A stretch of DNA of 64,000 bases from Psammoneis japonica (lineage: Eukaryota), in NCBI GenBank assembly GCA_008632985.1, contig QPGO01000199.1, positions 62,001 through 126,000 on the forward strand. Direction: 5' to 3'. The first letter of the stretch is position 1. The number at the start of each line of letters is the position of its first letter. Shown piece by piece: positions 1 through 64,000 of this stretch. Position numbers and translations under genes: made by a program. The notes under the pieces were generated by a model, which ran no database searches, had not been told where the DNA came from, and saw only the letters and a list, made by a program, of their open reading frames with translations.

Positions 1-3000
1 CACCTCAAAACTCATGCTTTTCCACCAGGGCTGACAGATGAAAATGCTGACTTTCTGTTTCAGTGGGCCAAGACAACAAAAATCTTGCTGTTGTGTGGGG
101 TGCATGGGTTGAGAAGCTGACAAAGGCATTTGTGCCAGATGGGCCTCATTGGCTGGCATTTTTTGTGGTGTTTTCTGTGTGGCCAGAAGTTTGTGTGTCC
201 ACAGTGTGCAAAGTGCTTGTGGCACTGCCTTTGCAATGAACTCTTCTCATCAGACCACACAGGCCAATGGCTGTTGCAAAGTGGTTGTCTGTCCCCCTTT
301 CACAAAGTCTGTTGAGAAAACAGATGCTTTTGGTGCTCTTCAACTGGGGTGCTCTCATCACTGTTGCATGGATGACATTGGCATTGAATGTGCCCATGTC
401 CACACAAGCCTGTTCACCACCAAAAAACATGTGCTCTGAAAAAACATGTTGTCTCAACTGTGATCAGAATTTCAAACTGCTGACTGTGACAAACCGACAT
501 TGTGCTCTGTGCTCCAATTCAAACTGCTGACTGTGACAAACAGACACAGTGCCAAGCATGACAACAACAAACCACAAACTTTGTTGGCAGTCTTGCAAAC
601 AAACTGCAAGAGTGTGGCTGCATGAGTGGCCATGATTGGGAGGAGCTCAATGTTTCTGAGGGTCTCATGTTGCAAGCTGTGGTTGATGAATGCAAAAATG
701 AGGAGAAATGCTGAAAGAGATGCTGCTGCAGTGCGTGACAGACTGCTGCCATGACACCTTGACAATGGCTTGAAGAGCCAAAATGTGGTGCATTTCACAA
801 AGAAGTCTCTTCCTCTGATGCAGAGAGGAATCTGAGAGAGCAATGATGACAAGTGGTGCTTGTCACAGGACTGGAACCAGAGATGGAGGCAAGAATGCAC
901 ATCTTTGAGCAGCTGAGTTTTGTGCCATGCTGTTGGGCAACATCTGGGTGAGTTGCTCAAGGAACCACATGGCAGCTTGGTGGGTGGCAACCAGATGCCA
1001 GTGGCACAGTCTAATGACAGGGGAGCCACAGAAGTTGAGAGTTGGATGGAGGGAGATGCAAGCACAGCTTGGTGCTCAGCTGCTTGAGGATGATGCTCAG
1101 AGCTCAGGCAGAAAATGGCGGGCCTGGCAGGCAGCATTGGATGAAGCCCTCCAGCTGCAGAAAGGCGCGCCATTTGCTGGGGTCATTGCGAGACACCAGC
1201 ATGTTTTGGGATGGGCAGCCACAGCAGAGGTCAAGTGAAGAAGAGAGAGGGGGAGAGTGTGGTGCAAAAGACAGGGTTGGCATCAAAAACCTCCCTGCAA
1301 ATCTCACAAGAGCACTCATTAAAAACGTTGATGAGGTCAAGGGTGAAAAAGGAGTGTGTTGGAATTTCTTCATCCAAGCAGCAGCAGCAGCCAAGGCAGT
1401 TGAGGCCACCTTTGGTGGCTGCCATCCCTGAGAATTGTCTGTCTCTGGGAGGAGGGAGCAGAGGCAAGGGCAGGAGCCTTGGCAGTCATGGCAAAAGTGC
1501 CTTGACACACTGGGTGGCCATGGGGCGCAACTTGTTGGGGTTTGTTTGGTCTCTGTGTGGCGCCAGCACCAGATGGACAAAGCAGCTGGCTGGCATGAGC
1601 AGGCTGATCTCATCAGGGGGGCCGCCAAGCTGGCTTGAGCCAGGAGAATGAGCTGATTGAGTGTTGCAAAGCAGGGCCTTGTTTTGGATTTGAGGGTGGT
1701 GCAGAGACTTTCAAGAGGGGGCACAGGCCTGGAGTGCATGTCAGCAGCAGAGTCGACGCAACAGTGTGCCTGGCTTGCACACTTGCTGAGAGCTGCCAGG
1801 AGAAGAGCTGCTCATCTGGCATTTGAAGGGTGGGCAATTCGGGGAGGGCACAGGGATTGTGTGATGGGATGCGAACGGGGCATCATGGCATGGCTTGGGG
1901 GCATCGACAAGCAAAGAGCGGACAGACAGGCAGACGTTCACTTCTAAAAAGCGAGGGACGACATGGAAACCGCAAACGCACACACCCAAAAAATTTGGCG
2001 CGCGATGTTCTCGTGTTCCGCTTTGCGTGTTCGTTGCTTCCATGATGCTCCATGCACTGCACACACAAATGAACGAGAGAAAAATCGTGTCACCTTGAAC
2101 TTGATGCCGGATCCATCCTTCACCTCTTTCTCAACAACAACATCCATCTCGTTCGCATCAAGCATTGATGAAATTTTGACAGACATGAAGCACTTCAGTC
2201 TTCTCATTCTTGTTTCGACTCTTGCCAAGTCCATCAATGCTTTTGCGGGGGTGAGCACTCGCCCTTTTGCCGCTCATCATTCCCAGGCACCTCGGCCAAA
2301 ATTGATCCTCATTGGCGGGAGTCCTGGTGCTGGCAAATCAACTTTTGGCATGAGAGCGTGGCACTCGATCAGGGCATGCTGAGGTGCACATCTGCCGATG
2401 CAGTTCAAGCTGTCATGAGATCTTTTGTCAGAGAGGGTGTTAGTCCAGCCCTTCATTGTTCTTCCTGCGAACCATCGGGAGAAGATGACAACCCCGTCAA
2501 GAGCTGGAAAAAGACTTGCACAGTGCTGGAGGCGAGTTTGAGCAGTCTGGCTCTTGACGCCATTGAACGAGGCCAGAGCCTGGTGCTAGAGGGAGTGCAC
2601 ACAATGCCATCGTCCGACTTGATTGAACTGTGGGAAGCAAGCGGTGGAGTTGCGATTGGGTGTCTCTTGACCATCGCTGACGAAGAGGGGCACAAGGGAC
2701 AGCTGCACCGCCGTGGCCCAATGACTGGAAAGGATGCGCCAGAGGAGAAAAAGATCAAGTCCTTTGAGCGGATTCGAGCTGTTCAGGATGAGATGATGGC
2801 TCTCGCTCAAGCTTCCAAGAATTGGGTCCTTGTCGAACAGAATCTTGCGCCCAATCCGCTCGACATCATCCAGTCAAAAATTCTGGATTCCACTCTAGAA
2901 GCAACCAACTCTGGTGTGCCAACCCTCGAAGAATTGTCTCACTTGGAGCAGCATTTGGCACAAGTGGAGGAGGAAATGGATTTGGCGCCAACCGAGGAAG

Positions 3001-3090
3001 CATCGGAGGAAGATGTGCCTGGCGATGGTGTTCATCGCGAAGGAGCTTCATTCTGAGATCATGCTTTGAAAATGTGTGCAGGAATGCATG
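1..3090. other. TpA-depleted (hypermutated) block 1
   Basis: TA dinucleotides are almost absent. CG is also nearly absent in about 1-1000 but present from about 1750 onward. Overlapping Tyr-free, Cys/His-rich ORFs occur in all frames. TA resumes at about 3095 (gctagtctagctacc). Confidence 0.85.
2185..3056 (+). pseudogene. P-loop kinase-like (2-phosphoglycerate-kinase-like) protein with N-terminal signal peptide, TpA-mutated and frameshifted
   Basis: MKHFSLLILVSTLAKSINAF leader, Walker A LILIGGSPGAGKSTFG, frameshift near 2355, then ALDQG..C.S.D.V.AVMRSF...SPALH.SS and SLVLEGVH motifs. The protein contains no Tyr. Confidence 0.7.
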
Positions 3091-4594
3091 GTGCTAGTCT
3101 AGCTACCTTATGTGTAAAAGCGACCCTAACGCTGCCTAAAATCAATGTGTGTCAGCATCAATGCTCCTGCTCCGACAAGTCCCTGCAAAATGCAGCGGGA
3201 GAGAAGAATCATTTGTTCTGTCTCAGAGAGGAGATTTCCTGACCATCTGTCACTGTTGTCATTGCATGCAATGCAAGACACATTTTTTGGAAACATAAAT
3301 GCCATTGCATTCCTTCTCTCTAGTCTACTCTCTAGTCTCTAGAGAGCCTGCCGCAAAAAGGAAACAGGCTCTCGCACGTTTACCAGGACCAGACCGGCGG
3401 AGAGACACAAATCAGTCACGAAACGGTTGACACTCGTGACTGACTTCTCAAAGACCAGCGATAGACAGCAGATTGAAGATGGCAGATGCCATTGCGACCA
3501 ATTGCGACGATGTTGTAGTTGTAAATTGTGTGGCAATTCTCAACAGCGAACGAAACGAAGACTTGTTTTGCAACGGAACGGGCTTTATCAATTACCATGG
3601 CATTGCAAGAATCGTAATGCAATGATAAAGTGAGTTTGCTACTCTACGGGAGAGAGCATGACTGTTGTTGAAGCTCGGCAGGATTGTTCATTGCGTACCG
3701 GTACTCATTTCTCTTTGTGCCTACGTTCGCACTAGATTCCTCTCTCGATAACGAACGCCCCAACGGTTGCGGTGCTTCGACTAAAGACAGAACCAAAGGT
3801 GACGGATTTAGGAATGTGTGCGATTGAATGCAATGGAAAATCAAATGGAAGACAATTGGTGTAACAGTGGCGACGAAATAAATCGGGCCTGACAATCTTA
3901 CAACGCAATTACTTGAATACAAGAACGCGGAAAAGAAAAAAAGTTAGGAACAAAGAGTCGAGTCCGCACAAAGCAAGCGCAAGATGATCGAATGCAGATG
4001 GTTCATTCGCAATCACTGACGTGGGCATTGTACAATTCCTGGTGCCAAAGCTGGTGCAGATCCCACAAGTCGTTCGATGCAGAAACCTAACACTCTCGCA
4101 AATCTCCATACTCTCACAGTCACGACATTATCGCCTATAAAGAGCAAAAGACCCAACAATAACTCTCTTGAAGACTCCTGTTGTGATCGAAACTAAGGGA
4201 AAAATCGCGTTGTCTCCCTAACGAGGGTGCTGACTTGATGAACAAAATAAGAACTCTGGAATTGATAGATTGAAAATAAGCAACAGCGCATCTACAATTG
4301 GCACTTCCACGTCTGCTGGAGAAGCAACAGCGGAAAGTGATGGAAGTGAGACTAGCTAGAACACCGAACAGAACGTTGCAGTCCCAGCATACTGCGACAC
4401 CTCGTGACAAATATGCAGGCTAACGAGAATGTCCACAACAAAAACAGCAGTTACGGGATCGACTCTAGCCTCGAGAGTCACCGAATAAGCTTGACGAAAT
4501 GGCTGGAGAAATCATTATGTATGATCTTTGAGGATACTGATTAAAGCGAGAGTCAGTCCAGGTCGAGTGTGCTGAGAACTCTTCTGGCGACGGC

Positions 4595-9650: not shown

Positions 9651-9967
9651 TGCCCAATGGCGCCAGGAGATAGTTGATAATGTAGATGTTATACTGTTAG
9701 ATGCTCGAATTGTGAGACGAGATAGAACAGATCTCTCAGAGCTACTCTCTCGGAGATCTCGTGAAATGTGTAGAACGTAGTACTTGAAGCAGTGATCAGA
9801 AACCGAACCCAGACACACACAATAAGTCATTGAAAAGACTTATGGTGTTTAGGATAAGTCATTGAAATGACTTATAGAGAACACGGAGAACATTCTGAAG
9901 AACTCTGATGTATATGGATAAGACACGCACACGATACACTTACGGACAGACACATACACCCACAGCA
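9651..9967 (-). repeat. 3' LTR of gypsy element (largely unmutated)
   Basis: Direct repeat of 14357-14673, preceded on the minus strand by the PPT. Contains 23 TpA. Confidence 0.95.
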
Positions 9968-9989: not shown

Positions 9990-12900
9990 TTAGAAGACAG
10001 GGTGAAGACGACGGATATTGATCCGTTCAGTGACGTTGGGAGAGCGCTGGATGGTGACTGTACCGTTGGTATGAATACGTACGATGCGAAAAGGACCCTC
10101 TTTAGGGTTTAACTTGCGTTGGACGTCCTTGGTGGTCACATAAACTTGATCACCGACCTTGTAATCGTAAGGTAAACGGTTGGCATTTTCACGTGCGTTG
10201 TTGCGTAGGACGTTTTGAGCGCGACGTTTATTGATAAATTTCCAATTAGCCAGATATGTCGCAGAAATGACCATGTCACGGCCGAAGACAAACTGAGCAG
10301 GAGTGGACATAAGGGCTGTATGGTAGGTACTGCGTAGAGCCCATGCGACGGATTGAAGTACACCTTCGATTGTTGAATCGTCAAAAGGTCTTGAGCTGAG
10401 ATCCATAGATCGGATGGAATCGCTGATGACTTGGTGGATGCGCTCGACAATCGCGTTTGCTTGTGGATTTTTAACGGTTGTAGGCTTGGGCTTAACTCCG
10501 TAGCTGTCAAGTAAGCCGGTAAATTCAGACGTGAATTCCGGTCCGTTGTCATAAATAACGGACTCGGGTCGCGGATAACGACAGAACCATACCCGATCTA
10601 CGATTAGTGAGATGTTTTCGGAGGTCTTGGAACTGTATGATGATAACTCGGGCCAACGAGTAGCAACGTCGATCATAGAGACGGCTTTGATAGATCGGTC
10701 AATGCCGCTAATATCGGTAAATGTCCAGGGCCCAAAGAGATCGGCTTGCATAACTTGCCACGGTTTGTACACGACATCTGGTGGCGGTAATTCGCCGTAC
10801 TGTTTCACGGTGCGTTTTTGTTTTTGACAAATTTGGCATTCACGAACGAAACGGCGAACCAATCCTTGCATGTTTCGAATGTAGAAGTGGGAAGCAAGAG
10901 TAAGGTAGGTGCGATTAGCTCCAGGATGACAGAGAGAATCGTGATACCAGCGTAACACGGCTGGGAACAAGGTGGATGGAAGGACGATCTTGTCGTTCCG
11001 TAGAATGATACGATGTTTCTGAAACTGATGGCTTGCATAAATGGAAGAGGTTGTCTTGCGAAGCTGAAGAGACTTGTCGGCGGCTTGATGTTCCGCAATA
11101 CGGTCATAGGTTACTGGAAATTCATTTTCAGAGAGTTCCAGAGTCATGGCTTCTTCAAAGTCGTCAGTAGAGACGTCGATGACTGGATGGCGACTCAAAA
11201 AGTCGGCGATGATGTTGTTTTTGCCAGGACAATATTCAAAAGTGTAATCATACTCTTCCAATAAGAGACGCCAACGTTTGACGCGTTCCGACTTAAACCT
11301 GTCAAAGGTTAAGTTTTTGTGGTCGGTCTTGGCATGTACTCGATATCCAAATAGGATGTTACGAAACGCATTCATTGTTTCGACGATGGATGGTAATTCC
11401 TTCTCCATAGTAGTATAATTGCGTTGAGCTCTGGATAGTTTGCGACTGTAGAATGCAATGGGCCACTCGCCGTCTTCAAATATCTGAGTTATGACGGCGC
11501 CGAGTTGATAATCGCTCGCGTCGGTATAGACATGGAAGTCGCGACCGAAATCAGGGAAGCGTAATAGAACTTGGCGAGCAATGCTTTTTTTCATAGCTTG
11601 AAAAGCTTGTTCTTCGACATCGGTCCACTTGAACTTGATTTTAGGAGAAACCATAGCCGATAGAGGTGCCATGGTGTGGCTCTTGCGGTGCCATAATTTC
11701 TTATAAAAATTGACGAACCCATTAAACGATCTGAGCTGACTTTTGTTCTTGGGAGAAGCAAAACGAAGGATGGGAATGATCTTTTCCTTCTGAGGTGTGA
11801 TGCCCTTTCTCGTGATATGATATCCTAAGAAGTCAACCTCAGGAGCAGCAAGAAAAGTGCCTTCAATGTGTGCTCGAAGGTTGCTCTCATCGAGTCGACG
11901 AAGCACGAGCTCGATTCGTTGGAGGTGCTGAGCGAAAGTTGATTTTGTAAACAAAAGAATGTTATCGAAGAAAGCACACATGTCTTCCATATCGCCAAAG
12001 TGTCGATTGACAAAGGCTTGGAAGATATCACTCGAAGGCATGGCTCCTTGAGGGAGTCGAAGGTAGCAATATTTGCCCCACGGCAAGATGATAGCACAGA
12101 GTTTGCTCGACTCTCGGTCGAGTACGAAATGACAGTAACCACGGTTGAGATCGAAACAAGTGGCATGCGTAAATCCGTTGATTTTCCAAATCATATCATC
12201 AGGATTTGGTATTGGATGAGGATGGCGAATGAGACATGAGTTGAGGTACCGTAAGTCGGTCAAGAAACGGACTCCGCCGTTTTTCTTTGGTCGGAATAAA
12301 CATGGCGCGCCCCACTCGGAAGTAACATCACGAGTAATAACGCCAATGTTTTCAAGTTCATCGACTTCTTTTCTCGCGATAGGATAAAGGGGTTGAGGTA
12401 TGGTATAAGCCCTAGCACAATAAGGCTTAGAGCCAGGCTTGACTCGGAGTTTGATCGGAGGACCAGGAACTGCACCGAGGGTTCCATCAAATAAATTGGG
12501 ATAGCGACCGAATAATTCCAATAGGTCGTCTTTTTGACTTTCAGTCAAATGGTTGCATCCCGACACCATCTTCTGATAGTTATGCTTGTCATACTCGTTG
12601 CTAGAAATAGCACGGGTCTGACGTTGAATAGCAGCTAGCATAAAATCAGGCAAAGCTGCATCGGCAGGATCGATATTTATAATTTCGTCTCGATCCATTG
12701 ATCCTTCTGGACGCATGGGAATAGCAACATCGTCCCATATAACACTCTTAGTCTTGAAATTGAAGATAAGACCAAGGCTTTGACATGTTCGGCGGCCAAT
12801 AACGATGTCATGGCGCCCGATTGCCTTCTCTTCGATATAAGCATCATTAGATACTTTTTTTGCACTCGTAAATTCTGGGAGTTTGATTTCAATAGTGGCA

Positions 12901-14261
12901 AGCTGTGAAGACTTGACTGCTTTATATCTTCCGTTGACTTTCGTATCCACAGTCTTGATAGAATGAGGAATAGACTTGAGCGCGTCACGCTTGACGAAAT
13001 TACCACGCGCTCCAGTGTCGAGTAGGCCAAGATAGTATTTATGTTGGCCTGTCTCGCGATTAAGAAACTGAATCGTCGCTTCCGTAGTCAATACAGGGTC
13101 CGGTACTTTCAATTGGGACTCCCGAATGGCATTCATCTCTTCAAACATATCGGAGATTTCGTTGATGTCTTGTGACGATACGCTATCAGCGTCGTTCGGA
13201 TTCGAGCGGAATTGAACCTGAGTCGAACGAGTAGGTTGATTCTGAACTTGATTGTTCTCTTCTGGAAGACGAGAACGGCTCCTTGTATTATACTGATGAC
13301 TTGGCTGAGTCCTCTGACTGTTCTGATTACGGTTGGAGCCTTGCTGTTGTTGACCGCGGTTAGTGCGGTTTTGTTGATACTGTTCGCGTTCTCGGCGAAT
13401 AATGTTACACTCCCTCCCACCGGGATGTACAACACCATGTATGGGACATGTGTTATTTGACTGTTGATTTCTTCTGTTGGAATTGGCACCTTGATTCCTG
13501 TAGTTACGATTCGTCTGGTTTCCACCACGACGATTGGGTGAATTATTTCGATTGTTCCGGCGATTCCCGCCAGAATTGTCTCGAGGATTGTTTGGCTCGA
13601 TACGTCGCAAGCCTTCATAGTACTGGACCTGTTGGTTGAGGCCCAATCCTCGAATATTGGCCTTGGTTTGGTCATGAATCCATGATTTGGGACCGGATTT
13701 TCTAATAACAACGACGAGTTCCGCTTCCGTGAACTTCGGAATTGGATCAACGTCATCTTCGTCCGTTGGTAAGGGTATAAATGGGATGAGATCGTTGATC
13801 TGGCGGACACGTTGAAGAAATGACTGTACGGTGTCATTACGTGGTTTCTTGAGGGACTGTAACCAATCCTTGGTGTCTACCGCAATGTCACGGGTCATCT
13901 TGGTTAAGATGTAATCTTCGCGTGCCGCAAGAAAAGTGTCTTGATCTCGATCTTCGTACTGATCGACAACAGTGTTCCAGTCATCCATCGGCTGGCCTGT
14001 CAAAAGGCGGTCGATTAGACGGAAACGTGGAATTCCCTCTGCAACGTTGAGGATAGCAGAGATTTCTTCATAACGCTTGAAGAAAGCGAGAGTGTCTTCA
14101 GGGTCATCACTGTCCAACACACGTGCTTCTATGGTGGACTTGAGTCCATCAGGATCATTTGGGTCGACTGGAGACTCGAAAGACACAAAACGATCTTTAC
14201 GACGTTCTTCGCTTGTTCGTTCCGGGCGAACAAGACGGAAAGGACAGTTTTCGGCTGACAT
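9990..14261 (-). CDS. Gypsy gag-pol polyprotein (gag, aspartic protease, RT, RNase H, integrase), 1423 aa
   Basis: Protease LLDTGA; RT RFLTDLRYLN and LPWGKYCYLRLPQG; RNase H VYTDASDYQLG and TDHKNL; integrase HDSLCHPG..CQIC, DNGPEF, NPQANAIVER. Domain order PR-RT-RH-IN. Confidence 0.95.
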   Translation of the reverse strand: MSAENCPFRLVRPERTSEERRKDRFVSFESPVDPNDPDGLKSTIEARVLDSDDPEDTLAFFKRYEEISAILNVAEGIPRFRLIDRLLTGQPMDDWNTVVDQYEDRDQDTFLAAREDYILTKMTRDIAVDTKDWLQSLKKPRNDTVQSFLQRVRQINDLIPFIPLPTDEDDVDPIPKFTEAELVVVIRKSGPKSWIHDQTKANIRGLGLNQQVQYYEGLRRIEPNNPRDNSGGNRRNNRNNSPNRRGGNQTNRNYRNQGANSNRRNQQSNNTCPIHGVVHPGGRECNIIRREREQYQQNRTNRGQQQQGSNRNQNSQRTQPSHQYNTRSRSRLPEENNQVQNQPTRSTQVQFRSNPNDADSVSSQDINEISDMFEEMNAIRESQLKVPDPVLTTEATIQFLNRETGQHKYYLGLLDTGARGNFVKRDALKSIPHSIKTVDTKVNGRYKAVKSSQLATIEIKLPEFTSAKKVSNDAYIEEKAIGRHDIVIGRRTCQSLGLIFNFKTKSVIWDDVAIPMRPEGSMDRDEIINIDPADAALPDFMLAAIQRQTRAISSNEYDKHNYQKMVSGCNHLTESQKDDLLELFGRYPNLFDGTLGAVPGPPIKLRVKPGSKPYCARAYTIPQPLYPIARKEVDELENIGVITRDVTSEWGAPCLFRPKKNGGVRFLTDLRYLNSCLIRHPHPIPNPDDMIWKINGFTHATCFDLNRGYCHFVLDRESSKLCAIILPWGKYCYLRLPQGAMPSSDIFQAFVNRHFGDMEDMCAFFDNILLFTKSTFAQHLQRIELVLRRLDESNLRAHIEGTFLAAPEVDFLGYHITRKGITPQKEKIIPILRFASPKNKSQLRSFNGFVNFYKKLWHRKSHTMAPLSAMVSPKIKFKWTDVEEQAFQAMKKSIARQVLLRFPDFGRDFHVYTDASDYQLGAVITQIFEDGEWPIAFYSRKLSRAQRNYTTMEKELPSIVETMNAFRNILFGYRVHAKTDHKNLTFDRFKSERVKRWRLLLEEYDYTFEYCPGKNNIIADFLSRHPVIDVSTDDFEEAMTLELSENEFPVTYDRIAEHQAADKSLQLRKTTSSIYASHQFQKHRIILRNDKIVLPSTLFPAVLRWYHDSLCHPGANRTYLTLASHFYIRNMQGLVRRFVRECQICQKQKRTVKQYGELPPPDVVYKPWQVMQADLFGPWTFTDISGIDRSIKAVSMIDVATRWPELSSYSSKTSENISLIVDRVWFCRYPRPESVIYDNGPEFTSEFTGLLDSYGVKPKPTTVKNPQANAIVERIHQVISDSIRSMDLSSRPFDDSTIEGVLQSVAWALRSTYHTALMSTPAQFVFGRDMVISATYLANWKFINKRRAQNVLRNNARENANRLPYDYKVGDQVYVTTKDVQRKLNPKEGPFRIVRIHTNGTVTIQRSPNVTERINIRRLHPVF

Positions 14262-14356
14262 GTTAGGTCAGGGCAATTCGCTAGACTTGCTGTCGACAAT
14301 GAGGGCTTCGCAGAAGCAAAGAACAAGTTGGATTTAGATGGGGAGTAAATTTGCTG

Positions 14357-14673
14357 TGCCCAATGGCGCCAGGAGACAGTTGACAATGTAGATGTTGTGC
14401 TGTTGGATGCTCGAATTGTGAGACGAGATGGAACAGATCTCTCAGAGCTGCTCTCTCGGAGATCTCGTAAAATGTGCAGAATGCAGCACTTGAAGCAGCG
14501 ATCAGAAACTGAACCCAGACACACACAATGAGTCATTGAAAAGACTCACGGTGTTTGGGATGAGTCATTGAAATGACTCACAGAGAACACGGAGAACATT
14601 CTGAAGAACTCTGATGCACATGGATGAGATGCGCGCACGATGCACTTGCGGACAGACACACACACCCACAGCA
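14357..14673 (-). repeat. 5' LTR of gypsy element (TpA-hypermutated)
   Basis: Aligns without gaps to 9651-9967 with 30 transitions. Only 2 TpA remain. Confidence 0.95.
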
Positions 14674-15480
14674 CATTCCGGCTTGGCGAACAACAAACAC
14701 ATCGTGCCGCAAACAACGAGTCGAAAAAGAGAGACAACACACCATCAAGCAAAATGAGTTGTGGAATGCCAAACAAATGCAAGGTCTCAATCCAGAGGAA
14801 GGGCGAGCCATCCTTGGCGACAACGGCACTCAGGCTTGGCAAACAACAAGCACATGGTGCGAGACGACGAGTTGTGAGCGAAAAACGAGCGCGGATTCTC
14901 AGAGATTTTGAGTCATGACCGTTGCTAAATTTCTCAATCACTGTCACTTTTGTGCATCCTCGCAGAGTTGTCACAGTGATTTCGCATGCACCGGAGGCAT
15001 GTGAACAGCAGCGAGCTTTTTTTCAGGATCGCCTCACAGACCCCAAGACCCATGTGTCGGTGGAAAGCTCTCGATGAGCTGAACAAGGTCAAATGCATGT
15101 TGCATTGGTCGGAGTGAGCAGAAAGCGAGCGTTTGTCGCTGAAAATTTGGCACTTGTTTGAAGAAAAACAACGGTCACATTCGCCTTTTTCCAATTGATT
15201 TTTGTGTTCACACACAAACATCAATCGCATCATAAATTTGACATTTAATCCGGAGTTCCAAAATCTCATCCAGGATTGCATGCTGTGCAAATTGCTTGTG
15301 GGACACCTTGTTTCTGTGCTTTGCTCTTGCTCTGCAGCTCTTGCAACTGAAGATGTCGAAAAAAGGCTTTGGTCAGTCGCTGCAACTGGGTGTGTTTTAG
15401 TGACTGACGAAAGCCGATTTTCGATGAGCATTTTTGGTGTCGAGATTTTTCAACAGCAAAAATAACTTCGCTGCTGTTTA
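14370..15480. other. TpA-depleted block 2
   Basis: Covers the gypsy 5' LTR, the flanking DNA and a MITE. TA is very rare while CG is largely retained. Confidence 0.85.
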
Positions 15481-15491
15481 CATGCCTCCGG
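14991..15491. mobile_element. MITE with 24-bp terminal inverted repeats
   Basis: ccggaggcatgtgaacagcagcga (14991-15014) versus tcgctgctgtttacatgcctccgg (15468-15491), one mismatch. Flanked by CA on both sides, probably an edited TA target site. Confidence 0.75.
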
Positions 15492-22332: not shown

Positions 22333-24419
22333 ATTGGGTCGAATGACGGGCCCGTAGACTAGCAGGAGATGCCGATTCAATGACGAAAAAATGTTGCTAC
22401 ACAACCGTAAGTTCCATTGCTATGTACGTTAGTGATAAATCTGTTTGTGATGTGCTATCTAGTTCGAATCGTTGTCATCACTGTCGTTGCCTTCGTCTTC
22501 CTCAAGATCAAACAGATCCACAGTGCCTTTCTTTTGTTGTAAACACACCTCCAATCCGACGTGAGTCACTCATCTTCGTTCTTCCTGTTTTCGACGACGA
22601 ATGACTATCGGTAGCTGCGATTCCAAATCGACTGTTTGCAGATGTCGCGCTGTGTATGTGTACATGTATAAAACGAGAGCAACAAGGTGTGAGGATTTGC
22701 TGCACGCTGGTAGAAGTTACAATACATACCATAGGTTGAACTTACTCGTGGCAAACACCGTCCATCATCGACTGTGGAGTCGTCACCTTTTTCTTGTATG
22801 GGCATGGGCTGAACGTTGACCACGCCGTGTGCATCCGACCAGTCGGACACCAATGTACCGCCCAAGATTTCTTTCTGCTATGATGGACTGGGAGCACTTG
22901 GAACACAGACACAACCGCAACTCCGTGGATACTGTTTCGTCAATGTTGCGGTGCACCAAAAGGGTCCTCTTTACCAGAACCACTATCCGAACCTGACGAC
23001 AGAGAGCTCTTGACGTCATCCCCACAATTACAGATTTCCTAGACGTGGCAGTTTAGATAGAGGTAGGCCGAAGCGACTCTTAAGGTAGTAGTCCATGGTA
23101 GCTTCTTCGATACATGCTCTCCGCTGGCACTGTCTAACTAAGCGGAGTACAAACAAGTCGGATAGAATCGCTTTGTCCCAAAGACTTGTGACACCGATTG
23201 CAATAATAGCAGCCCAATGACGGCTTAGCGAAAGAGCCTTGTCGGTACTATTATTGAGAAGGTGTGGAAAGAAGAATCCAGTCTATCGTCCGTTTGAGCG
23301 GCCACGTCGTTTTCGATTCCGATTCTTGTGGGGATCACAACAGCGCCACTTGCCGATGGCAAATTGAAACAAATTCATGTCACAGACTCTGTAACCACAA
23401 ACTCTGTAAGAGAACGCCTGGGCTGTTCAAGGACTTCATCGGCAAGGCGATGTACACTGCTAGCCGCGTTAACGATTGTGGGCGTTTCAATCTGAGATTT
23501 CTCTTGGCCTCCTGTGACTAAAACAAATGAGATCAGTAAAGCTCGTGTGAGCTACAACCAAGCTTAACAGCAACCACTCTTACAAACGACAGACCCGCAA
23601 CACAAGCTCACAGTTCAAAAATCTTCCTCGGCTGAATTTGGAGAACGGGGACGCAGTGCATGAGAACAGTCGCCAAGCTTCTAGAAAAAGTGCTCCTAAT
23701 TTTGGAGCCGCACCACAAACGCAAAAAAGTGTTGTTAGACACATTGTTGCATTGATGGCTTGGTTCGCTCACCAACAGTGGCAATCCCAACAAAGATTCA
23801 GTGATGCTTGCGCTGGTGCTTTCTTCCCCAAAGCACTCTGCGCTTGTTGAAAATGGTCAGCGGCACATGCCTTTTTTTGGAGTTTCCTCACAAGGCCAAG
23901 TCCTTCAATGCACCCTTGGCCTTGAAATATGACGCAACTGGCCTCAGCAATGTCATCAAATCTCTCAAACCGAAGTGGAAATCTGCCAGGAGGGCAATCC
24001 AAAATTGAGTCGTCACCAAGAGTGCATCACTGGTGCATGCCAACTCCTCAACAGCCTTGGGTTTCTTCATGTCAGTGGCCAGAGCCTTGCTGCATGTGTC
24101 TCCAACACGGCAAACAAAAAAAAAAGCTTGGGATTCTGCTTCAGCAACCACACTGCAGAGTGAGTGCTCCAATTGCCACACCAGCCAATCATTCACTTGA
24201 ACAATCCCCCAGAGAATTGATTCATGGCAGCAGATGATGCAGGCACATCATTGACACTCTGACCAGTGTGAGCTGAAACAAAACCTGGTGCACATGATCT
24301 TGTTTCACTGTGCACCTTTCAAGCACCAGTGGCTGAATGAGGCTCAGCAATTGTGCATCATCAAGTGGATGAAACACTGCCCACAGGGATGCCATGCAAT
24401 CTTGTCTGATCATTTTTGA

Positions 24420-25230
24420 GTGGCTTGCACATGCTTTGCAATTTTGCAATGTGGACAATTTGACAGTGATGTCAGTGGGCACAAAGCACAGGCATGTGCA
24501 TGGACATCCTGCTTGTCATCACAAAAGGCACGTTGGATGACCACATCAAGAAGGTGGGCGCCATGCTTCCTTGAGAAGCTTGAAGACACTGGACTTCAGG
24601 TCAGCACCTCAACATTGCTGTTCTGTGGAGTGGGCTTGTTCTTTGACTCTCAAGAAAAAAGGTTGAGAAATGTTGCCAGGCCAAAAAACAAGAAAGAACT
24701 TTGGTCATTCAGTGGCACAGTGAGCTCCTGCTGAGATGCATGGTTGCGCAGATTGAACATTTTGGCACCCCTTGCAAGATTTGCAGGCTGGGCCATGAAA
24801 TGGGAGGTGACTTCAGGCCATTGAAAGAGAAGTGCTTCTAAACTGTCAAGTGAGCAAAACATCAGAAGAGACACTTCTTGCATCTGGGTTTTGACAAACT
24901 GTTTGAAATCTTTGCCATTGGCTGCATTCAAACACACAACCCACAGCAGCAACATCTCAAAACAAAAACCTGTTACACTTTGCAGCAACAGACAGCTGAG
25001 CAGTGCTCAGCTGACTTGTGCAACAGCAGAGCAAGAATCATTTGCAATTTTGACACTCTGAAAAGTTCAGATCCACTTTCTGCAGCTGTGGTTGTTGCAC
25101 CATTGTGCACACAGATCACAAAAACTTCATGTGCAGAGCACTCAAAGCTTGGCATGAAAAGAATGCAGGCCTGAGCTGAGATGTGTAATTCCATCCCAAT
25201 TTAATTGCAGGCTGCTGTCTCAGCCATCTC
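24420..25230 (+). mobile_element. Heavily decayed gypsy pol relic (RT/RNase H/integrase remnants)
   Basis: ILLVITKGTLDDHIKKVGAML, PKNKKELWSFSGTVSSC*DAW.RR..ILAPL and HLGFDKLFEIF match the typical gypsy motifs YxDDLLxITKGT..DHL, P..K.ELRSFLG.VNYY and YPDF..PFEI. Confidence 0.65.
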
Positions 25231-25609
25231 AACCCAAGCCAGGCCAATTTTTGACTCTAAAAAATGTTGTCCAACAGTTGCAAAAACACACCTGAAGTGC
25301 ATGATCTTAACAAGGCCTTTGCAAATGAAGCAAGGGAGATTGCAATGACTCCCACCAGGTTCAACAAAAGCCAACTCAAACAGCCAAAAAATGGTCACCT
25401 GTTGCAAGACAGTTGCATTTTGCATGACTGTTCTGCACAGAAATTCTGTGAAGGAGAAATGAGAAAATGTCCAACAGACAGCTGGTTTGTTGATGAAACA
25501 AAATTTGAGTCACAAAATCAATCTCCTGTGTGAGAAGCTTCTGGTGAAAAAATGTGGCAGAGATTGTCCCTTTGAAAGCCTTTTGCATTTTTCAGAGATG
25601 TCATTGTCA

Positions 25610-27000
25610 GAAAAACCTCTGGTGGAAAAGTGTGAGTCAACAGAAAAAGTCACTTTTGCCAATGTTTTTGCACTTGCAACTTGAGCACATTCTTCCTTCA
25701 TGTCCCAAAAAATGACCTCAAAGGGGCAAGCACAGTTTGGGTGGCTTGCTTGACTGCAGTTGTGGCGGAAAAGCTGAGTTGGGGCAGGAGGCCAAGAAAC
25801 CTGGTGGCAAAGTGTCAGCCAGGAGAAACAAAGTCACTTCCACCACACATTGTCTGCACTCTCAGCATCTGAGTGCACTCTCCATGTCCCAAGAAACAAG
25901 CTCAAAGGGTTGATCATAGACTGGGTGGTTTGTTTGGCTGTGCTGCAGCTGTGGCGGCAGAGCAGCCTCTGGTGGGTGGGCAGATGTGCAGCTGGAGGCA
26001 AAGTGTCAAACCACAGAAAAAGTCACTTCTGCAAACATGTTTGCAGTTTTGGCTTCTGAGCACACTCCTTGTGTCCCAAGAAACATGCACAGAGGGTTGG
26101 GCACAGCTTGGGTGGCTTGCTCAGCTGCAACTGTGGTGGCAGTGTGAAATCTGGGCAGCAGGCAGAAAAGCAGTGTGTGGTGGGAAAGTGCCAGTTGGCA
26201 GAAAAAGTCACTTCTGCCACATTGTTTGCATTTTCATCTTTTGAGCACACTTTTCCTGTCCAGAAGCATCTTGTCAAACAGTTGAGCACAGTTTGGGTGG
26301 CTTTGGTTGGCTGCAGTTGTGGTGGCAGAGCAGCCTCTGGGTGGGCAGAAACTGCTTGAGGGCAAGTGTCAAACCACAGAAAAGTCACTTGTGCCAATGC
26401 ATTTGCAGCCAAGGATTCTGAGCACACTCTTCATTTCCCAAGAAACAACTGCAAAGAATTCAGCACAGTTTGTGGGGCTTGCCTGACTGCAGCCATGGCA
26501 ACAAAGCAAAGTTTCAGCAGCAGGCAGAGAAGTCTGGTGTGTTGAACCTCAAAGGGTCAAGCAAAGATTGCGTGGCCTTGTTTGACTCCAATGGTGGCAG
26601 CACAGCAAAATCTGGGCAGCAGACAAAGACAAAGAAGGGTGGCAGCAAAATGTCAGTTGGCAGAAAACATCACTTCTCCCAAATTGTTTTCACTTCCAGC
26701 ATCTGAGCACACTCTTCATGTCCAAAGGCATCTTCTGAAATGGTTGAGCACCATTTGGGTGGCTTGCTTGATTGCAGCTGTGATGGCAGAGCAGCCTCTG
26801 GGTGGGCAGAAACCCTTGCAGGCAAAGTGTCAAACCTCAGGAAAAGTCACAACTGCCAATGAATTTGCAGTCTTGGCTTCTGAGCACTCTTCCAAAAAAT
26901 TGCTTTTGCCAAACTTTCTGCACTCTCAGCCACTGCTGAGCACACTCTTCATGTGCCAAGAAACATCATAAAATGGTTGAGCACAGCTTTGGTGGCTTGC
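25610..27000. repeat. Degenerate tandem repeat, unit about 185 bp, about 7 copies
   Basis: Recurrent ggcaaagtgtca..cagaaaa(a)gtcactt..ctgagcacactct..tgtcccaagaaac..gcacagtttgggtggcttg near 25620, 25805, 25995, 26180, 26360, 26645 and 26820. Confidence 0.8.
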
Positions 27001-28978
27001 TTGATGAACACGCCAAGGCTTGCTGCTGTGCATTGCAGCTTCATTCTTGGACTGGGGTGCACTGGGCACTGGAGTGTTGGCATTCTTTCCTCAGGTTTTC
27101 CTGCTTTTGAATTCATCATCTTGAACAAAGGCTCGGGCGAATCGAGTGAGACATGGCAAAAGATGTGTTGCATGTCATTTTTTGCATGATGTGGAGTGGG
27201 CGACAAATCAAGATCGTCGCAGCGATGTGGCAGAATGTTTTGGAAAGTCCACCAAAATGAGCTGTGACAAGTGTTGTCACACAATTGGATTGTCAGACAT
27301 GAGCACTTCCCAGTTTGTTTTGTGAGCACAACAGCTCTTGCTCCTGCAACCTCTGTCGGTTTCATGATTTGATTTCACAGGTTCTTGAATGCACTGAAAA
27401 AGCTTCAGGCCCACAGACCAACCACCATTTGTGTGCATCAAACATTGCCAAACATGAACATTTAATCCTGCTTGCTTGACACAGAATGTCATCTCAAGAC
27501 ACTGCTGTTGATGAACTCAAAAGGCTTTCATTGACATTCTCAAGGGCTTTCTCCACAGGGGCTCTGTTCTGCCAACTCCAAAAGGGCAGAGAAGACCAGC
27601 CACCACCTGCCATTCCAAGAGGAAATCCCATGGCTTTGGCAGCTGCAGAAAGCAGGCCACCAAAGTTGTTTGTTCTGGGGCTGGCTGCAATGACTGCAGT
27701 CAACACAAGAGTGATGTCAATTTTTTCTTCTGCCACTTTGAGACTCTTTGATTCATCATCTGCATTTCTGTGAGACAGAAGTTCACCACAGCATCTGCCT
27801 TTGTTGGGCACCAACTTTCTCTTTGTGCTGTGTTCATGACTCTCCACTGATGCTGTCACAAAAATGTGCACACAAAGGACCTTCAACTGGAGCACCAAGC
27901 ACCTGCAATTTGTGCTGCAGTGCAACAAATCAATTCCTTGGCAATTCACATGGCAACCAAGAACTCATCCCCCCCAAAAGCAGCTGATGGCTGCTTCCCT
28001 CTCTGCAAATTTTGCTGCCACATTGGCTGAGAGCCAAAAATGACAGGAGAGCACTCTGCACAAAAGCCAACATGGCTTCAGAAGCTTTTTTGTGTTGAAA
28101 CAGTGGCTGCAAGCTCTGGTGGCTGTTGCAACAAATCTCAGGGCTAAAATGCACATGGGGACACTTGCAAATGTTGAAAGCCCGGCTCTGCACCTGCTGG
28201 GGTTGGAGCAGGCCAGTTGGTGCTCCGAGCTGATGGCTGCTGGCTGGCCCACTTCTCTGGTGGTGGCTGGCTGGCCAGCAGTGTGCAGCCCTCACTTGGG
28301 GGTGTCAAGCTGAGTGCAACAAAGAGCTTGCTTAAGGCATTGGCATGTCATGGTGGAATGCACCCAGCTCTGCAACATTTTGTCTTGCCTTGCTGCTGAC
28401 AGAGGCAACAGTGATCACCAGAAAGAGGAGCACGGGCAGCTCGGACAAAAGAAGCAGCAAGGAAGCCAGCGGTGGTTTGTTGCCAGCACAGGCAACAATG
28501 AATTGAGAGGCATCAATTTTTCAGCACCTTTGGACAGGAGCAACAGATGTGTTTGACTGCAGATGCTTTGGAAGAAACAACAAGAGGCAGAGTTGTTGCC
28601 AGTGCGCGGAGCCTCGACGGGGACGATGGGGCGGTTCGTTCGGCACTGTAGCACGAATCGCGTGCGACGTTCCCTGTGCACTTTTTACGTACGAGAGAAT
28701 CAACGTGTTGTGTTTGTGCAGTGCGAAAAGCGTGGACGTGCAAAAAACTGCGCTCCATCTGTCACTTGCTTGTTGCTGCTTGTCTCTGCTTCAGCGGCTT
28801 CGGGTGCCTGGCTCTAGGAGCAGTGTTGTGTGTTGTTGCTGTCTGCTGTTGCTGCTGCTGTTGCTGAAACCAACCCATCATCATCGAAACAAACCAAGCC
28901 ACGTCTTCTAAAGATCGAAACTTTCAAAAGCAAGCCTTGTTGCAAAAAAAAAAAGCCGTTTGAGCAGTTTGATTGAAT

Positions 28979-29232: not shown

Positions 29233-29350
29233 CGCTTCCTCTGCGATAAAGTGTTCTTAATCGAACCAGCAACGTTCTCTCCGAACCAACAAGATACGCC
29301 GTTTAACAAGAGGAGCACAAAGACGTGCTCAGGAACTTCAAGACCTCATT

Positions 29351-34873: not shown

Positions 34874-34895
34874 CCCATCTCATCGAATGAGGGAG

Positions 34896-55440: not shown

Positions 55441-58400
55441 ATGCATAAATTGTCGGTGAAAGTGCCGAGCGCTTCGAATGTGAGGGCTGTGGATCAACGC
55501 CTCATGCAGATACCAATAAGCCACAACGAATTATAATAAGGACTGAAAACCTGGATCGTGACGAGAGATAGCCGAATCCGTGAGTGAGTGAGTACATTTC
55601 TTTTTAAAAAAAAATAGAGAGAGCCATTTTGTAGCAAACGCAAGAACAACGGTAATTCTCCAAGAAAGACAAATCCATTGCAGGACAACAACGAAAAGAC
55701 ACACGCGCGTTTCCATACCACTACTTGGAACTTACGAGATGCAATGGATGTGAAAAATCAACGGTTCATAGATCACTTCTTGATGATGATTCAGTGTCAT
55801 TGGATGTGTTTGTCACATTGTCCTTGTATTTGGGCAATGCAATACAAAAGAGAAATAGGTCCGAAGTTGGAAGGATGAAAGTAATGAACACAACTGATTG
55901 ACACAACGTGGCTTCATCCCAATTCAAAGCAAACGGCTTAAGCTCAGCAATCCAAAAACGCCATGGGAACTCCATTCACTCTAGCAGAGTTTTCGGCGTT
56001 TGTCTCTTAAGCTTCAAAACGAAATATTTGTCAAACGAACGCAATCTCGTCTGTAGGTTTGTGGCTTCTTTCATCCCTCCGGTCCTCCGTGGTGTTTGAC
56101 TCGGTAAAGGATGTCCGCTGTTGAACGTGAGCTGTGATTGGAATGTTCCAGCGACTAATGGCCACTAGCTAGAGAGCGCTTCAACCTGCGCTTCAGCTTG
56201 GTCGGTGAAAGACGTGCGCGGCATATTCCCTCATTCTCATTCTTTGTGACTTTGGTGTTGCTGGTAGATGGCACTGCAGCTGTTCCGCCGTGGAATAAGC
56301 TGCAAGACAGAACAGCATGATGATGCTTTGTTCCACTGTGGTCGACGCATCAAGATTGCACACATCATCAAAGATTTGAAACGCGCGAAAGATCCGCAAT
56401 CCGCATAACGCGTTGAAGAGTGTTCATCCTCCTGCTGAAGATTCAAACATGACTCTGCCTCCGACTGGTGTTCTATGCACTGCCCATCCTAAAGGACTTC
56501 TTGAGGATGTGCCAGCTTGTGGCCAACAGGACACTTCCCCTTCCGGCAACACTCACGGATGCGGGAAAGCTGTTGTGCTTCCTGCTGCATCTGTGACCTG
56601 TCCCATGCATTCTCATGGATTTAAGGCATCCAAGCTGGGCCCAGTTGCTGGGTCCAGTGCATGTGACACTGATGCTGCTGTTGTGTCTCATGTCACAGGT
56701 GCGCTCGCTGTGGACACTCGGATGGATCCTACGGATGCTAGTTCCTTGACTGTCAAGTCCACTGTGTCTGTCATGGAATCTGTTGGCAAGCCATCTGCAG
56801 TTGTTGACACTGGATCCCTCGAACTTCCCACCGAATCGGTGGCACTTCCTGCTGAAGTCCAATCCTGCCTGCTCGAGACCCCAAAGTTTTTTGTTTCTGG
56901 CCATTTTGTTGTTCCACACAAAGATGGCCATGTTCGCCCCAGTTGTGGACCATCCTCTGTTGTCAAGGTTGCACCCGAGTTGCTTGCCACCCACACGCCG
57001 CCGTCGTCTGTTGCTCATGGACGCTGCCAGTGCTTTGTTGGTTGTCAAGTTGATTCAAAATTGGATTTTTGGTTCGGCCGTCGTTGGTTTCGGATGTGCG
57101 ATGCTGCCGTTCCTTCTCTTGTCCGATCAAGACCAGCGGAAGCGGGGCAACCCTGAAAGAGGGCCACCGGGTCTCATTGCCTCCCGCCATTTCATCTCTT
57201 TCCTCTGTTGTCAGGGCTGTTGTCGCATCCATTTGTGCTTTTCACGGTGCTCCGGACCTGTCCACCATTGCCGATGATGATCCCACATTTTTTGATCAGG
57301 GAAGGGATTCCCATGGTGCAGAGGAAACATGTCAGGCCATTGAGAACTCAATCTTCCGCCAAGACACCTTGCTTGACGATCACTTTTTGAACGCCGTGCG
57401 ATGCTCACCTCCGATGCGTCACTGTTCTTCCAACGTTGAGCAACTTCATGATGTGTTCTGTTTCTCTAACATGTTTTTCAAGGGCGACACAAAGTGTGGT
57501 GGCAGCATTGGTTTGCCAGGTGGGATGCCATTGCTTCATTTTCAACGCATCACTTGCCATGGTGGATTTCCAATTTTTGGCCCCATCTCTTCCGATGATC
57601 TTTGGCAACAGGATGACTCGCCAGAGTGTCCCGTTGCAGTCGATTGTTTGTGGATTGACAAAATTCTTCTCTGGTGCACGACTCAATTTGTCCAAAAGAT
57701 TCATTGGGAACTGCCTTTGACATTTTTTGTCAAAGACCGACGCGCTGAGCATGAGATGGATGTTTCATTCCCGACATGCTCGTCCCTTGATGGGATGTCA
57801 TCATTGATTGTTGTCATGTTTGCGGACCAAGTCTTGGCCATTTCTTTTGGTGCTCTTCTTTGTTCTGCTGTTCTGGCCCTCTCTTTTTGTTTGGATCGTC
57901 TCTTTCTTGTTGAGCATTGCATTGCTCATCAGGGGAGGGTGACAGACATCCGAGATGGGGAGCACACTCCCTTGTGTCGGACAGACCAGCATGGACAGCA
58001 TGGAGAGATCCGATGTTCTCTCCTTTGCTCACTTTCTTTCTGATCCAGCACATGATCATCATCTGTCCTAGACATCCGTTAGATTGTCCCGATGCCACCA
58101 GTCCATAAATTGCAAATGTTCCATGAGACTCTTTGGTTCCTGGTGCCTCTGAAAAATCCACAAAAGATGCCATTTGTGGTCATTTTCATGTTCAAAACTT
58201 CTCTGTCAACAAAGAGACGGCATTCCACATCTCCTGCTTGCACCTCTTCCTCCATTTCTTTTCCTCATTTGGGTGGCCTTGGTGGAGACGTTTGCTGTGT
58301 TGCTGCTTCTTGACAGTGGCAACATTGAGACACACAAATCCTTTTGATCAGACCTCGCCCAGAGAATCAGAGCAAATGATTCACAAAAGGGTTGACAGCA

Positions 58401-58889
58401 GGCAGCAGGACAGTCACAATGACCAAACAAATGTTTGCAAGACACAAGATGCATCATGCACCAGGGTTTCATGAATTTTTGTCAACTGCTTCTTTCTTTT
58501 GGCTGGACTTGGACGGGTGTGGCACGTTGCCACTTTGTGATGATGGTTTGCACTGCTTTGATCCACTTGATTTGGATGAGACAGAAGAAGCCCAACTTTT
58601 GCAACCTCCGTGCATTCAGGAAACCAATGCCGCCCCCCATGAAGCTTCATTCCATCAAGAATGAGTTGGCTGTGATGACAAAGATGTCTCTCCCACCAGC
58701 TGCACAAGTCTTTTTTTCTGTCTTGGGCCAAGCATGCCAAGGAGAGTGATTGCAAGTGCAAGTCTTTGTCCTGCTCTGCCACTTTGCATTGCCATCAACA
58801 AAACAGCTGGCTGCTCTTCTCCGCTCAACAAGCAAATGACAGAAGCCATGAAATCCAACAAATGAAGTCAAACCAATGAGCATGGTCAG

Positions 58890-63900: not shown

Positions 63901-64000
63901 TCTTCCCGGATTCCGTGACAATCCAATGGCACATGTCTGATGCAACACACAGCTGCTGATAAGAGTCAATGTATCACGGCGACGTGTTGCAGCATTTAAA
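60970..64000 (-). mobile_element. Second Ty1/copia element (3' half, runs off the window), TpA-hypermutated
   Basis: RT DLENACLNAP, ALHGLKSSG, LVCVDDIL; RNase H FVDADHAG, QNTVESAMFG, NLADLFTK; PPT gagagga near 61226-61232; candidate 3' LTR about 60970-61225. Confidence 0.88.

Follow-up and report, generated by a model that had tools for sequence, protein, structure and literature searches.

Blocks nearly free of TA in a 64-kb window of Psammoneis japonica point to regional conversion of TA to TG and CA in chromosomal DNA after transposon integration

What kind of process can remove almost every TA dinucleotide from separate, kilobase-scale blocks of a chromosome while the DNA between these blocks keeps its ordinary TA content? 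The question is raised by a stretch of 64,000 nt from Psammoneis japonica (GenBank assembly GCA_008632985.1, contig QPGO01000199.1, positions 62,001 to 126,000 of the forward strand; hereafter the window, numbered from its first letter), in which a first-pass annotation, made from the letters alone, had noticed four blocks with almost no TA, one of them beginning inside a retrotransposon, which belongs to the Gypsy type. The analysis reported here indicates that a host process very probably converts TA to TG or CA by transition in defined stretches of double-stranded chromosomal DNA, after integration of the elements they contain and until nearly no TA is left. The change is at the DNA level, occurred after integration, is regional and is blind to the content of the tract.

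The observed/expected ratio of TA was determined in 500-nt bins (128 bins, whole 64-kb window), and block edges were taken from the individual TA positions. Thirty-two of the 128 bins showed ratios of 0-0.16 and formed contiguous runs at 1-3000, 14501-15500, 24001-28500 and 56501-64000; five bins were intermediate (0.24-0.33), three of them on block edges, and all others were at or above 0.37. With so few bins between the two groups, TA content within the 64-kb window is bimodal, whereas a continuous variation would have spoken against the reading of the first-pass annotation. The four blocks agree within ~300 nt with those seen there and are delimited as follows:

1..3095, no strand assigned: block 1, cut by the window start; right edge at 2896-3095; TA-free apart from the residual sites counted below; CpG also erased at 1-1526

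14377..15430, no strand assigned: block 2; left edge at 14346-14377, right edge at 15398-15463; CpG largely kept

23928..28649, no strand assigned: block 3; left edge at 23736-23928, right edge at 28333-28649; CpG-free at 24108-28433

56739..64000, no strand assigned: block 4, cut by the window end; CpG-free core at 58356-61007; thinning zone from ~56300

Within the blocks we distinguish cores, where CpG has disappeared as well, and shells, where it persists. The TA observed/expected ratio was 0.03 in cores, 0.06 in shells and 0.60 in normal DNA, and that of TG and CA was 1.56-1.84 in blocks versus 1.16 in normal DNA. Only 7 TA remain in the 3095 nt of block 1, 5 in 1009 nt of block 2, 11 in 4720 nt of block 3 and 19 in 7261 nt of block 4, and the longest gaps without TA measure 2783, 1052, 1012 and 911 nt; at the TA density of normal DNA (0.0418 per nt), a TA-free gap of 1000 nt has a probability of ~7e-19. 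Compared with normal DNA, cores lack 92.8 TA+CG per kb and have an excess of 86.0 TG+CA per kb, while in shells the deficit and the excess are 53.9 and 50.5 per kb, respectively; this near-equality is the balance predicted if TA and CG turned into TG and CA. GC content shows no fall, with values of 0.49-0.51 in blocks versus 0.47 in normal DNA. Block sizes range from ~1 kb to more than 7 kb. Their edges had been described as sharp, which holds for three of them (30-200 nt), whereas TA thins out over ~450 nt (56300-56739) on the left side of block 4. As TGA is the sole stop codon remaining, long open reading frames (ORFs) are expected in the blocks, and gene finders will predict long spurious ORFs in such DNA, which has lost its TAA and TAG stops and its Tyr codons.

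Could blocks of this kind be produced by sequencing or assembly? Modified DNA (for example, with methylated A at TA and methylated C at CG) could be miscalled per strand, the consensus then picking TG or CA at each site. Strand-dependent miscalls at palindromes would likewise interleave TG and CA, and the library type of one of the runs covering the stretch, termed X1 here, is unrecorded; X1 may also be the assembly's own data. On the other hand, two X1 contigs of 1382 and 438 nt match block 3 at 27464-28839, a segment spanning its right edge, with 1 differing letter and at 26940-27377 exactly, whereas miscalls that depend on the strand would interrupt the word graph wherever a TA had been, about every 24 nt, so that the intact contigs disfavour this explanation. 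The same signature was moreover obtained from Illumina reads in the chlorarachniophyte Bigelowiella natans, according to the main text of a preprint (Mettrop et al., bioRxiv 10.64898/2026.01.13.699255). The contigs matching block 3 have a word depth of ~69, and the single-copy parts of this block (23444-25435 and 27428-28755) a depth of ~70-180 versus 120-141 in its flanks. Contig depth is a poor measure of copy number, with values of 470-3500 over the block 3 tandem repeats and block 2. Coincidence of the blocks with low-coverage or unpolished segments, which the first-pass annotation had considered fatal to its own reading, was thus not observed in block 3, where X1 contigs match at normal depth. 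An assembly artefact is unlikely, and base miscalling of modified DNA in particular we regard as highly improbable. A further run, X2, left 22780-26763 and 27428-28755 uncovered, with a depth of 1.23 in the intervening bin, which is not evidence of silence. One X2 contig omits 96 nt with GT..AG ends at 21473-21568, as expected of a spliced intron, and X2 is therefore probably RNA, though recorded as 'DNA?'.

The conversion of TA in chromosomal DNA, and its timing, can be followed in block 2, where these features were recognized:

9651..9967, minus strand: 3' long terminal repeat (LTR) of the Gypsy element, unconverted, with 23 TA; reference copy

9990..14267, minus strand: uninterrupted Gypsy polyprotein frame of 1425 aa with RVT_1, RNase H, integrase zinc-binding and rve domains; normal TA

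14357..14673, minus strand: 5' LTR of the Gypsy element, with 22 of 23 TA converted (11 to CA, 11 to TG) and 2 CG changed to TG

14991..15491, no strand assigned: element resembling a miniature inverted-repeat transposable element (MITE), with 33-nt terminal inverted repeats, 88% complementary; contains the right edge of block 2

The Gypsy element is bounded on both flanks by the same 5-bp target-site duplication (TSD), CATTC, at 9646-9650 and 14674-14678; intact and identical on both sides, it shows that the element was inserted as a single unit whose LTRs were identical. They have since acquired 30 differences in 318 nt, namely 22 changes of TA to TG or CA, 2 of CG to TG, 3 of the reverse CpG type and 3 others. 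The last three fall at just two places (~0.6% of the 318 sites) versus the 96% of TA that are gone, an indirect indication that the rate of TA conversion lies orders of magnitude above background; TA conversion is thus fast relative to ordinary mutation. From the 5' LTR the converted tract continues through ~750 nt of a flanking high-copy repeat (word depth of block 2 in X1 contigs, 1700-2300) and ends within the MITE-like element, and the first-pass annotation had correctly placed its beginning in the 5' LTR only and its continuation in the flank and the MITE. The outer repeat arm of the MITE-like element keeps its TA at 15463 and 15479, one of them in the highly susceptible TAC context, and the inner arm has TG at the position matching one of these two. 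The claim that block edges ignore element boundaries holds for most edges, which lie inside or away from elements, and fails for the left edge of block 2, which lies within ~20-30 nt of the inner LTR boundary.

These observations bear on whether the element could have been edited before it was inserted. Deamination of mobile elements by ADAR or APOBEC3 resembles the present case as a source of mutation in transposons; it acts on RNA or single-stranded cDNA before integration, affects one strand and ends at the limits of the element. By contrast, one LTR of an integrated element and its flank are changed here, on both strands. ADAR-like A-to-I editing of retroelement double-stranded RNA, or deamination of its cDNA, followed by integration of the edited copy, would agree with the base change, since A to G with a preference for a 5' U or T is typical of ADAR and TadA-type enzymes according to the main text of the preprint (bioRxiv 10.64898/2026.01.13.699255). 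It disagrees with the conversion of one of two LTRs in a single integration, with the untouched interior, with a tract reaching ~750 nt beyond the element, and with the conversion of a cellular gene and of DNA outside elements. The intact TSD together with the single converted LTR refutes RNA or cDNA editing for block 2, and for the window as a whole we give it almost no credence. The regional targeting of genomic DNA that the first-pass annotation had proposed in its place is supported by the same TSD, by the single LTR, by the extension past the element and by the use of both strands; a chromatin domain or a processive tract may define the region.

Four X1 contigs and one X2 contig join 9645 straight to 14674 with 5 shared letters. 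They would represent sites without the Gypsy insertion, either elsewhere in the family of the surrounding high-copy repeat or on the other haplotype. When the window was compared with other genomic copies in X1, transitions predominated: A to G was found 227 times and T to C 239 times, as against 139 changes of C to T and 150 of G to A, with 18-29 for each class of transversion. Within 40 of the 983 differences, 8 of the 20 A-to-G or T-to-C changes checked lay at TA, including 5 of 6 in the Gypsy interior, and other Gypsy copies elsewhere in the genome appear to be converted as well.

The LTR pair by itself gives no polarity, and the blocks could in principle be ancestral, the rest of the window having gained TA by a process like repeat-induced point mutation (RIP), with C to T at CpA/TpG. 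The direction of change was read from two remnants of coding sequence that are recognizable in the blocks by protein searches:

2176..2888, plus strand: remnant of a conserved cellular-type P-loop (AAA_33-like) gene in block 1, in two frames, 2176-2352 and 2355-2888; tblastn

61929..62756, minus strand: remnant of a Copia-type reverse transcriptase (RVT_2 relatives) in block 4, with no Tyr codon left; found by protein search

The Copia remnant has 169 relatives (best E 1.9e-107, 62% identity), the best named match being from Fragilaria. Tyr is the consensus (at least 70% of 20 Copia homologues) at 15 columns, where the remnant shows His 7 times, Cys 6 times, Phe and Ala once each, and Tyr never. 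Homologues from many organisms thus have Tyr where the block has His or Cys, which sets the polarity as TA to TG or CA and contradicts the reverse. The P-loop remnant has 230 relatives (best E 4.6e-58, 58% identity), which give weak matches to the AAA_33 and Zeta_toxin P-loop models, and against 18 homologues it displays changes of Tyr to Cys, Ile to Met (ATG), Ile to Thr (ACA) and Arg to Cys. On these comparisons the direction of change is fixed for blocks 2 and 4 and weakly so for block 1. Genes are intact in the normal DNA, which also contains a Copia element whose two LTRs are identical and has an ordinary TA content (observed/expected 0.60); this likewise speaks against the reverse polarity, and a zero-TA ancestor shared by unrelated classes of sequence is implausible; an ancestral state without TA is therefore hardly credible. 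The frame of the P-loop remnant shifts at 2353-2354, between ...TFGM and SVALDQG..., and this is either a true frameshift in a dead gene or an assembly indel.

Two block 4 ORFs gave no significant BLASTP match to the intact Copia polyprotein of the window, so the Copia remnant comes from a different Copia lineage. In a profile search, 90 stop-to-stop ORFs of at least 90 aa from the four blocks yielded a single and unconvincing Pfam match, at 1948-2379 to the Zeta_toxin model (P-loop), with 22.4 bits against a cut-off of 22.3, and the Copia remnant went undetected. None of the 21 ORFs (at least 90 aa) of block 3 reached the Pfam cut-off, no viral domain was found by Pfam in the block ORFs, and Rfam gave no match within the 64-kb window. 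Altogether, the converted DNA comprises an LTR, a high-copy repeat and a MITE-like element (block 2), a Copia remnant (block 4), a cellular-type gene (block 1), the tandem repeats of blocks 3 and 4 and the unidentifiable cores.

How the two strands were used can be read from the products. The 22 converted sites of the 5' LTR, with 11 TG and 11 CA, fall into 9 runs of like outcome versus 12 expected (z = -1.3, not significant), and the variance of the TG-versus-CA skew is 1.15-1.45 in the blocks (100-800 nt bins), near binomial, versus 1.66-3.30 in normal DNA. Both strands were hit about equally, with outcomes interleaved at fine grain, and this interleaving, with the near-binomial skew, excludes strand-coordinated patches such as a deaminase working on exposed single strands would leave. 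The interspersion of TG and CA reported by the first-pass annotation is thereby confirmed, also by the His and Cys counts at the Tyr columns. At a very short range, overlapping or adjoining TA (TATA, TATAT) or TA beside TG, at 3' LTR positions 9841-9843, 9873-9875, 9911-9913 and 9691-9693, had the same outcome in all four cases; CACA occurs three times and TGTG once at these sites of the 5' LTR, which hints at a very short-range coupling of strands or an effect of context.

Survival of TA depends on the neighbouring bases. Expressed as the ratio of block to normal DNA, it was 0.01-0.02 for TAC, 0.01-0.04 for TAT, 0.04-0.15 for TAG and 0.13-0.17 for TAA; YTAR accounts for 26 of 40 residual TA versus 304 of 1946 TA in normal DNA, and RTAY for 2 of 40 versus 630 of 1946. 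We described these counts with a model in which the strands react independently and by first-order kinetics, fast if a pyrimidine follows the A and slow if a purine follows, with a rate ratio of 3.4; it predicts 16.7 survivors in mixed context, where 12 were observed. Among the products, TTGC from TTAC was found at 3.45 per kb and TCAC at only 0.25 per kb. A rule set by the 3' base, with T-A-Y converted fast (T-A-C best) and Y-T-A-R surviving, is moderately supported by these sequence counts. That sites in slow contexts survive, and that the left border of block 4 is graded, speaks for repeated hits and against a single complete pass.

The same counts can be read from the opposite base. Thymine modification at TpA occurs in some protists, and a TET/JBP-kind enzyme could oxidize the T of R-T-A to 5-hydroxymethyluracil (or another modified T) that mispairs with G, giving T to C in the same regional process. 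TA being palindromic, R-T-A with T as the target fits the LTR, survival, Tyr-column and model counts as well as T-A-Y with A as the target; the preprint authors favour adenine deamination, in a main text that is likewise without biochemical data (bioRxiv 10.64898/2026.01.13.699255). We consider an attack on thymine unlikely.

Loss of CpG is nested inside the TA-free blocks, a feature absent from the first-pass annotation. The CpG observed/expected ratio is 0.08 in the three cores, 1-1526, 24108-28433 and 58356-61007, each of which lies inside a TA-free block, and CpG is largely kept (0.66) in block 2 and the shells. In the converted LTR of the young block 2, 2 of 11 CG were lost versus 22 of 23 TA, so that CpG loss was ~15-fold slower. 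The cores have lost 92% of their CG and retain 1.76 TA per kb, versus 3.66 per kb in the shells; with so much CG gone and some TA still present, they are not merely shells exposed 12 times longer. The loss of CpG to TG and CA would thus be a second process with a narrower domain, and its simplest source would be 5-methylcytosine that deaminates where the core of each domain is methylated. In silenced repeats, the decay of methylated DNA likewise turns CpG into TpG and CpA as in these cores; it differs here in being nested within a wider TA-free tract and, in block 2, ~15 times slower than the loss of TA.

Two of the cores carry repeat arrays of their own:

25620..27007, no strand assigned: diverged tandem repeats in the block 3 core, period ~177-190 nt, 61-84% alike, multi-copy in the genome

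59135..60492, no strand assigned: diverged tandem repeats in the block 4 core, period 189-192 nt

Word depth over the block 3 array is 470-610 versus ~100, and the two arrays are unrelated in sequence, with no cross-match of at least 80 nt. Such arrays, together with the failure of any core ORF to reach the Pfam cut-off among the 90 ORFs of the four blocks, would suit an origin of the cores of blocks 1, 3 and 4 as foreign or satellite DNA, already poor in TA and CG on arrival, with mutation in place confined to the shells and block 2; block 3, for which no comparator shows the direction of change, would also permit this. The composition of the cores, however, fits a host-like origin (deficit of 92.8 and excess of 86.0 per kb, as above), their residual TA have the same context bias, and TA loss is continuous from shell to core. 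Between repeat units, moreover, CA/TG is the most frequent double difference (12 and 14 columns), a weak signal because both dinucleotides are the most abundant there. A foreign origin of the cores seems improbable to us, and conversion in place remains the preferred reading for cores and shells alike.

The process that would account for these observations is the following. A change of A to G on one strand or the other of a TA step would yield TG or CA; each strand would be hit independently, with first-order kinetics and ~3.4 times faster where the A precedes a pyrimidine than where it precedes a purine; and a silenced chromatin domain would set the extent of the tract. Conversion destroys TATA-like motifs, all Tyr and ATA codons and all TAA and TAG stops, and in this way disables transposons, here through the promoter-bearing LTR of an otherwise intact Gypsy element.

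As to the agent, the responsible enzyme may be a TadA/ADAT2-type adenine deaminase acting on DNA, or a different one able to reach both strands of the duplex, a proposal to which we give somewhat less than an even chance. Changes of A to G, and also of C to T, in DNA would lie within the chemistry of the TadA/ADAT2 family, and in its natural tRNA substrate the edited A stands between U and C, which resembles T-A-C. To our knowledge, no regional targeting is known for BjADAT2, the amphioxus member of the family. This enzyme deaminates A and C in DNA and is described in its published report as the only natural ADAT shown to deaminate A in DNA (PMC10354150). By analogy it offers a proof of chemistry and not a match of specificity.

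Several points weigh against the process proposed here, or against parts of it. The contexts of BjADAT2 in E. coli, as given in the same report, are GAA and TCG and not TA (PMC10354150). The attacked base of a T:A pair cannot be told from duplex sequence, and no enzyme, intermediate or mutation rate was observed in the window. Block 3 has no comparator that shows the direction of change. The left edge of block 2, at the inner LTR boundary, could reflect recombination with an older converted LTR and not the edge of a tract. The context rule names the winning strand in only 8 of 14 mixed-context LTR sites, and the Tyr codons, all of which are TAY, split between His and Cys without an excess of Cys; the evidence for an effect of the 3' base comes from survival and composition, and both are confounded with CpG loss and background differences. 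The reads belong to three runs of one sample and one study, X1 possibly being the source of the assembly. Finally, among the best 80 of 591 related metagenome Copia loci, a selection biased to intact copies because these score best, none had a 1-kb window with TA observed/expected below 0.15 (minimum 0.33), so that the process is not general among such elements.

The footprint also appears outside the window. A Copia polyprotein fragment of 684 aa from another public assembly (P0225, among the 120 relatives of the Copia remnant listed) has 2 Tyr in 684 residues versus a median of 3.5%, and at 21 Tyr-consensus columns it shows His 11 times, Cys 6 times, Phe and Glu once each, and Tyr twice; judged by this pattern, it carries the same footprint in a different Copia lineage.

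The closest known system is B. natans. In its mutation-accumulation lines, 231 of 302 nuclear single-nucleotide mutations fell in integrated giant-virus and virophage regions, where 230 of the 231 raised GC content (A to G or T to C) and each of these 230 lay on TpA, at a rate of ~6e-7 per site per generation; 124 clusters of 1-kb windows poor in TpA and enriched in CpA+TpG were counted in the genome, and an ADAT2 homologue was put forward as the agent, the enzyme not being identified, as stated in the main text of the preprint (Mettrop et al., bioRxiv 10.64898/2026.01.13.699255). The likeness covers the specificity for TpA, the TpG and CpA outcomes, the discrete regions (clusters of at least 3 kb there) and TpA depletion with CpA+TpG enrichment, and extends to the enrichment of transposon-type domains among depleted genes, most genes inside these regions being without annotation. 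The differences are that the host there is a chlorarachniophyte (Rhizaria) and here probably a diatom (Stramenopila); that the observed/expected ratio in the nucleocytoplasmic large DNA virus (NCLDV) region is 0.45, versus 0.03-0.06 and thus near saturation here; and that the regions there are viral, whereas here a cellular gene was hit along with LTR elements, a MITE-like element and tandem repeats, and no viral gene was recognized. Near-saturation, the 3'-base rule, nested CpG erasure and the hit on a cellular gene are seen here and go unmentioned in the main text of the preprint, which, supplements aside, has no wording on CpG, LTR, retrotransposon, boundary, context, trinucleotide or diatom. 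On the shared footprint, the process in the window is taken to be of the same kind as TpA hypermutation in B. natans.

A regionally targeted natural A-to-G mutator of chromosomal DNA has been reported once before, in this one chlorarachniophyte, as its preprint presents it (bioRxiv 10.64898/2026.01.13.699255), and our literature search, with most subscription journals outside its scope, found TpA-directed hypermutation reported only for B. natans and none in diatoms. The best named matches of the WLM protein encoded in the window are the diatoms Seminavis, Fragilaria, Mayamaea and Ditylum (55-61% identity), and those of the WLM protein and the Copia reverse transcriptase taken together are diatoms at 47-61% identity; in three protein searches the best matches reached 70%, 63% and 62% identity, with none above 70% among the matches listed. 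The window therefore probably represents a second, distant lineage for TpA hypermutation.

Among defence systems, RIP of Neurospora and other fungi shares with the process seen here its action on DNA, regional extent, dinucleotide-specific transitions on both strands, disabling of transposons and spill into single-copy DNA. RIP changes C to T mainly at CpA, makes TpA and AT-rich DNA, and needs duplicated sequence and a sexual phase; here, TA is removed and not made, GC content is 0.49-0.51 versus 0.47 in normal DNA, and most of block 3 appears to be at single-copy depth, as far as contig depth, a poor guide to copy number, can show. In Pucciniomycotina, TCG hypermutation of repeats is reportedly found. 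A broader idea, which we put forward tentatively and consider doubtful, is that diatoms, and perhaps much of SAR (Stramenopiles, Alveolates and Rhizaria), possess a RIP-like defence of opposite chemistry, in which adenine deamination at T-A-Y would act on duplex DNA in silenced domains until TA is extinct, coupled with a narrower erasure of CpG in the core, and could spread over neighbouring cellular genes. If true, this would imply a natural, context-specific adenine editor of double-stranded DNA and a major unrecognized origin of 'orphan' ORFs and pseudogenes in protist genomes.

The window thus presents a saturated footprint in a probable second, ecologically dominant algal lineage, of a process that acts on transposons and can overrun cellular genes. 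What is added here is the proof of post-integration action, near-saturation, the context rule, equal use of the strands, collateral damage to a cellular gene and the nested core of CpG loss. The T-A-Y rule, the use of both strands, edges sharp to tens of bases and the CpG-loss core narrow the search for the enzyme and for the signal that sets the tract, and natural adenine deaminases acting on DNA are relevant to base editing.

Other features of the window lie in DNA with normal TA or apart from the blocks. A Copia-type element with normal TA occupies 28979-35149, ~330 nt from the right edge of block 3; its 254-nt LTRs (28979-29232 and 34896-35149) are 100% identical, and its gag/pre-integrase region (30693-32009) is read in a different frame from RVT_2 (31934-34873). 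On the minus strand, 46541-51214 contains an uninterrupted frame of 1557 aa, the only Pfam match of which is to a TNP-like RNase H N-terminal domain (E 1.3e-07); it probably encodes the transposase of a large DNA transposon. At 18790-20286 on the plus strand lies an intronless gene with DUF5010 and CBM35/CBM6 domains, whose named relatives are bacterial (Planctomycetes, Myxococcota; best match 70% identical); a 1357-nt contig from X2, the RNA-like run, covers it, making it a candidate for a horizontally acquired, expressed gene. In normal-TA DNA at 45516-46013, three or more copies of a 147-nt tandem repeat were found to be 98-99% identical.

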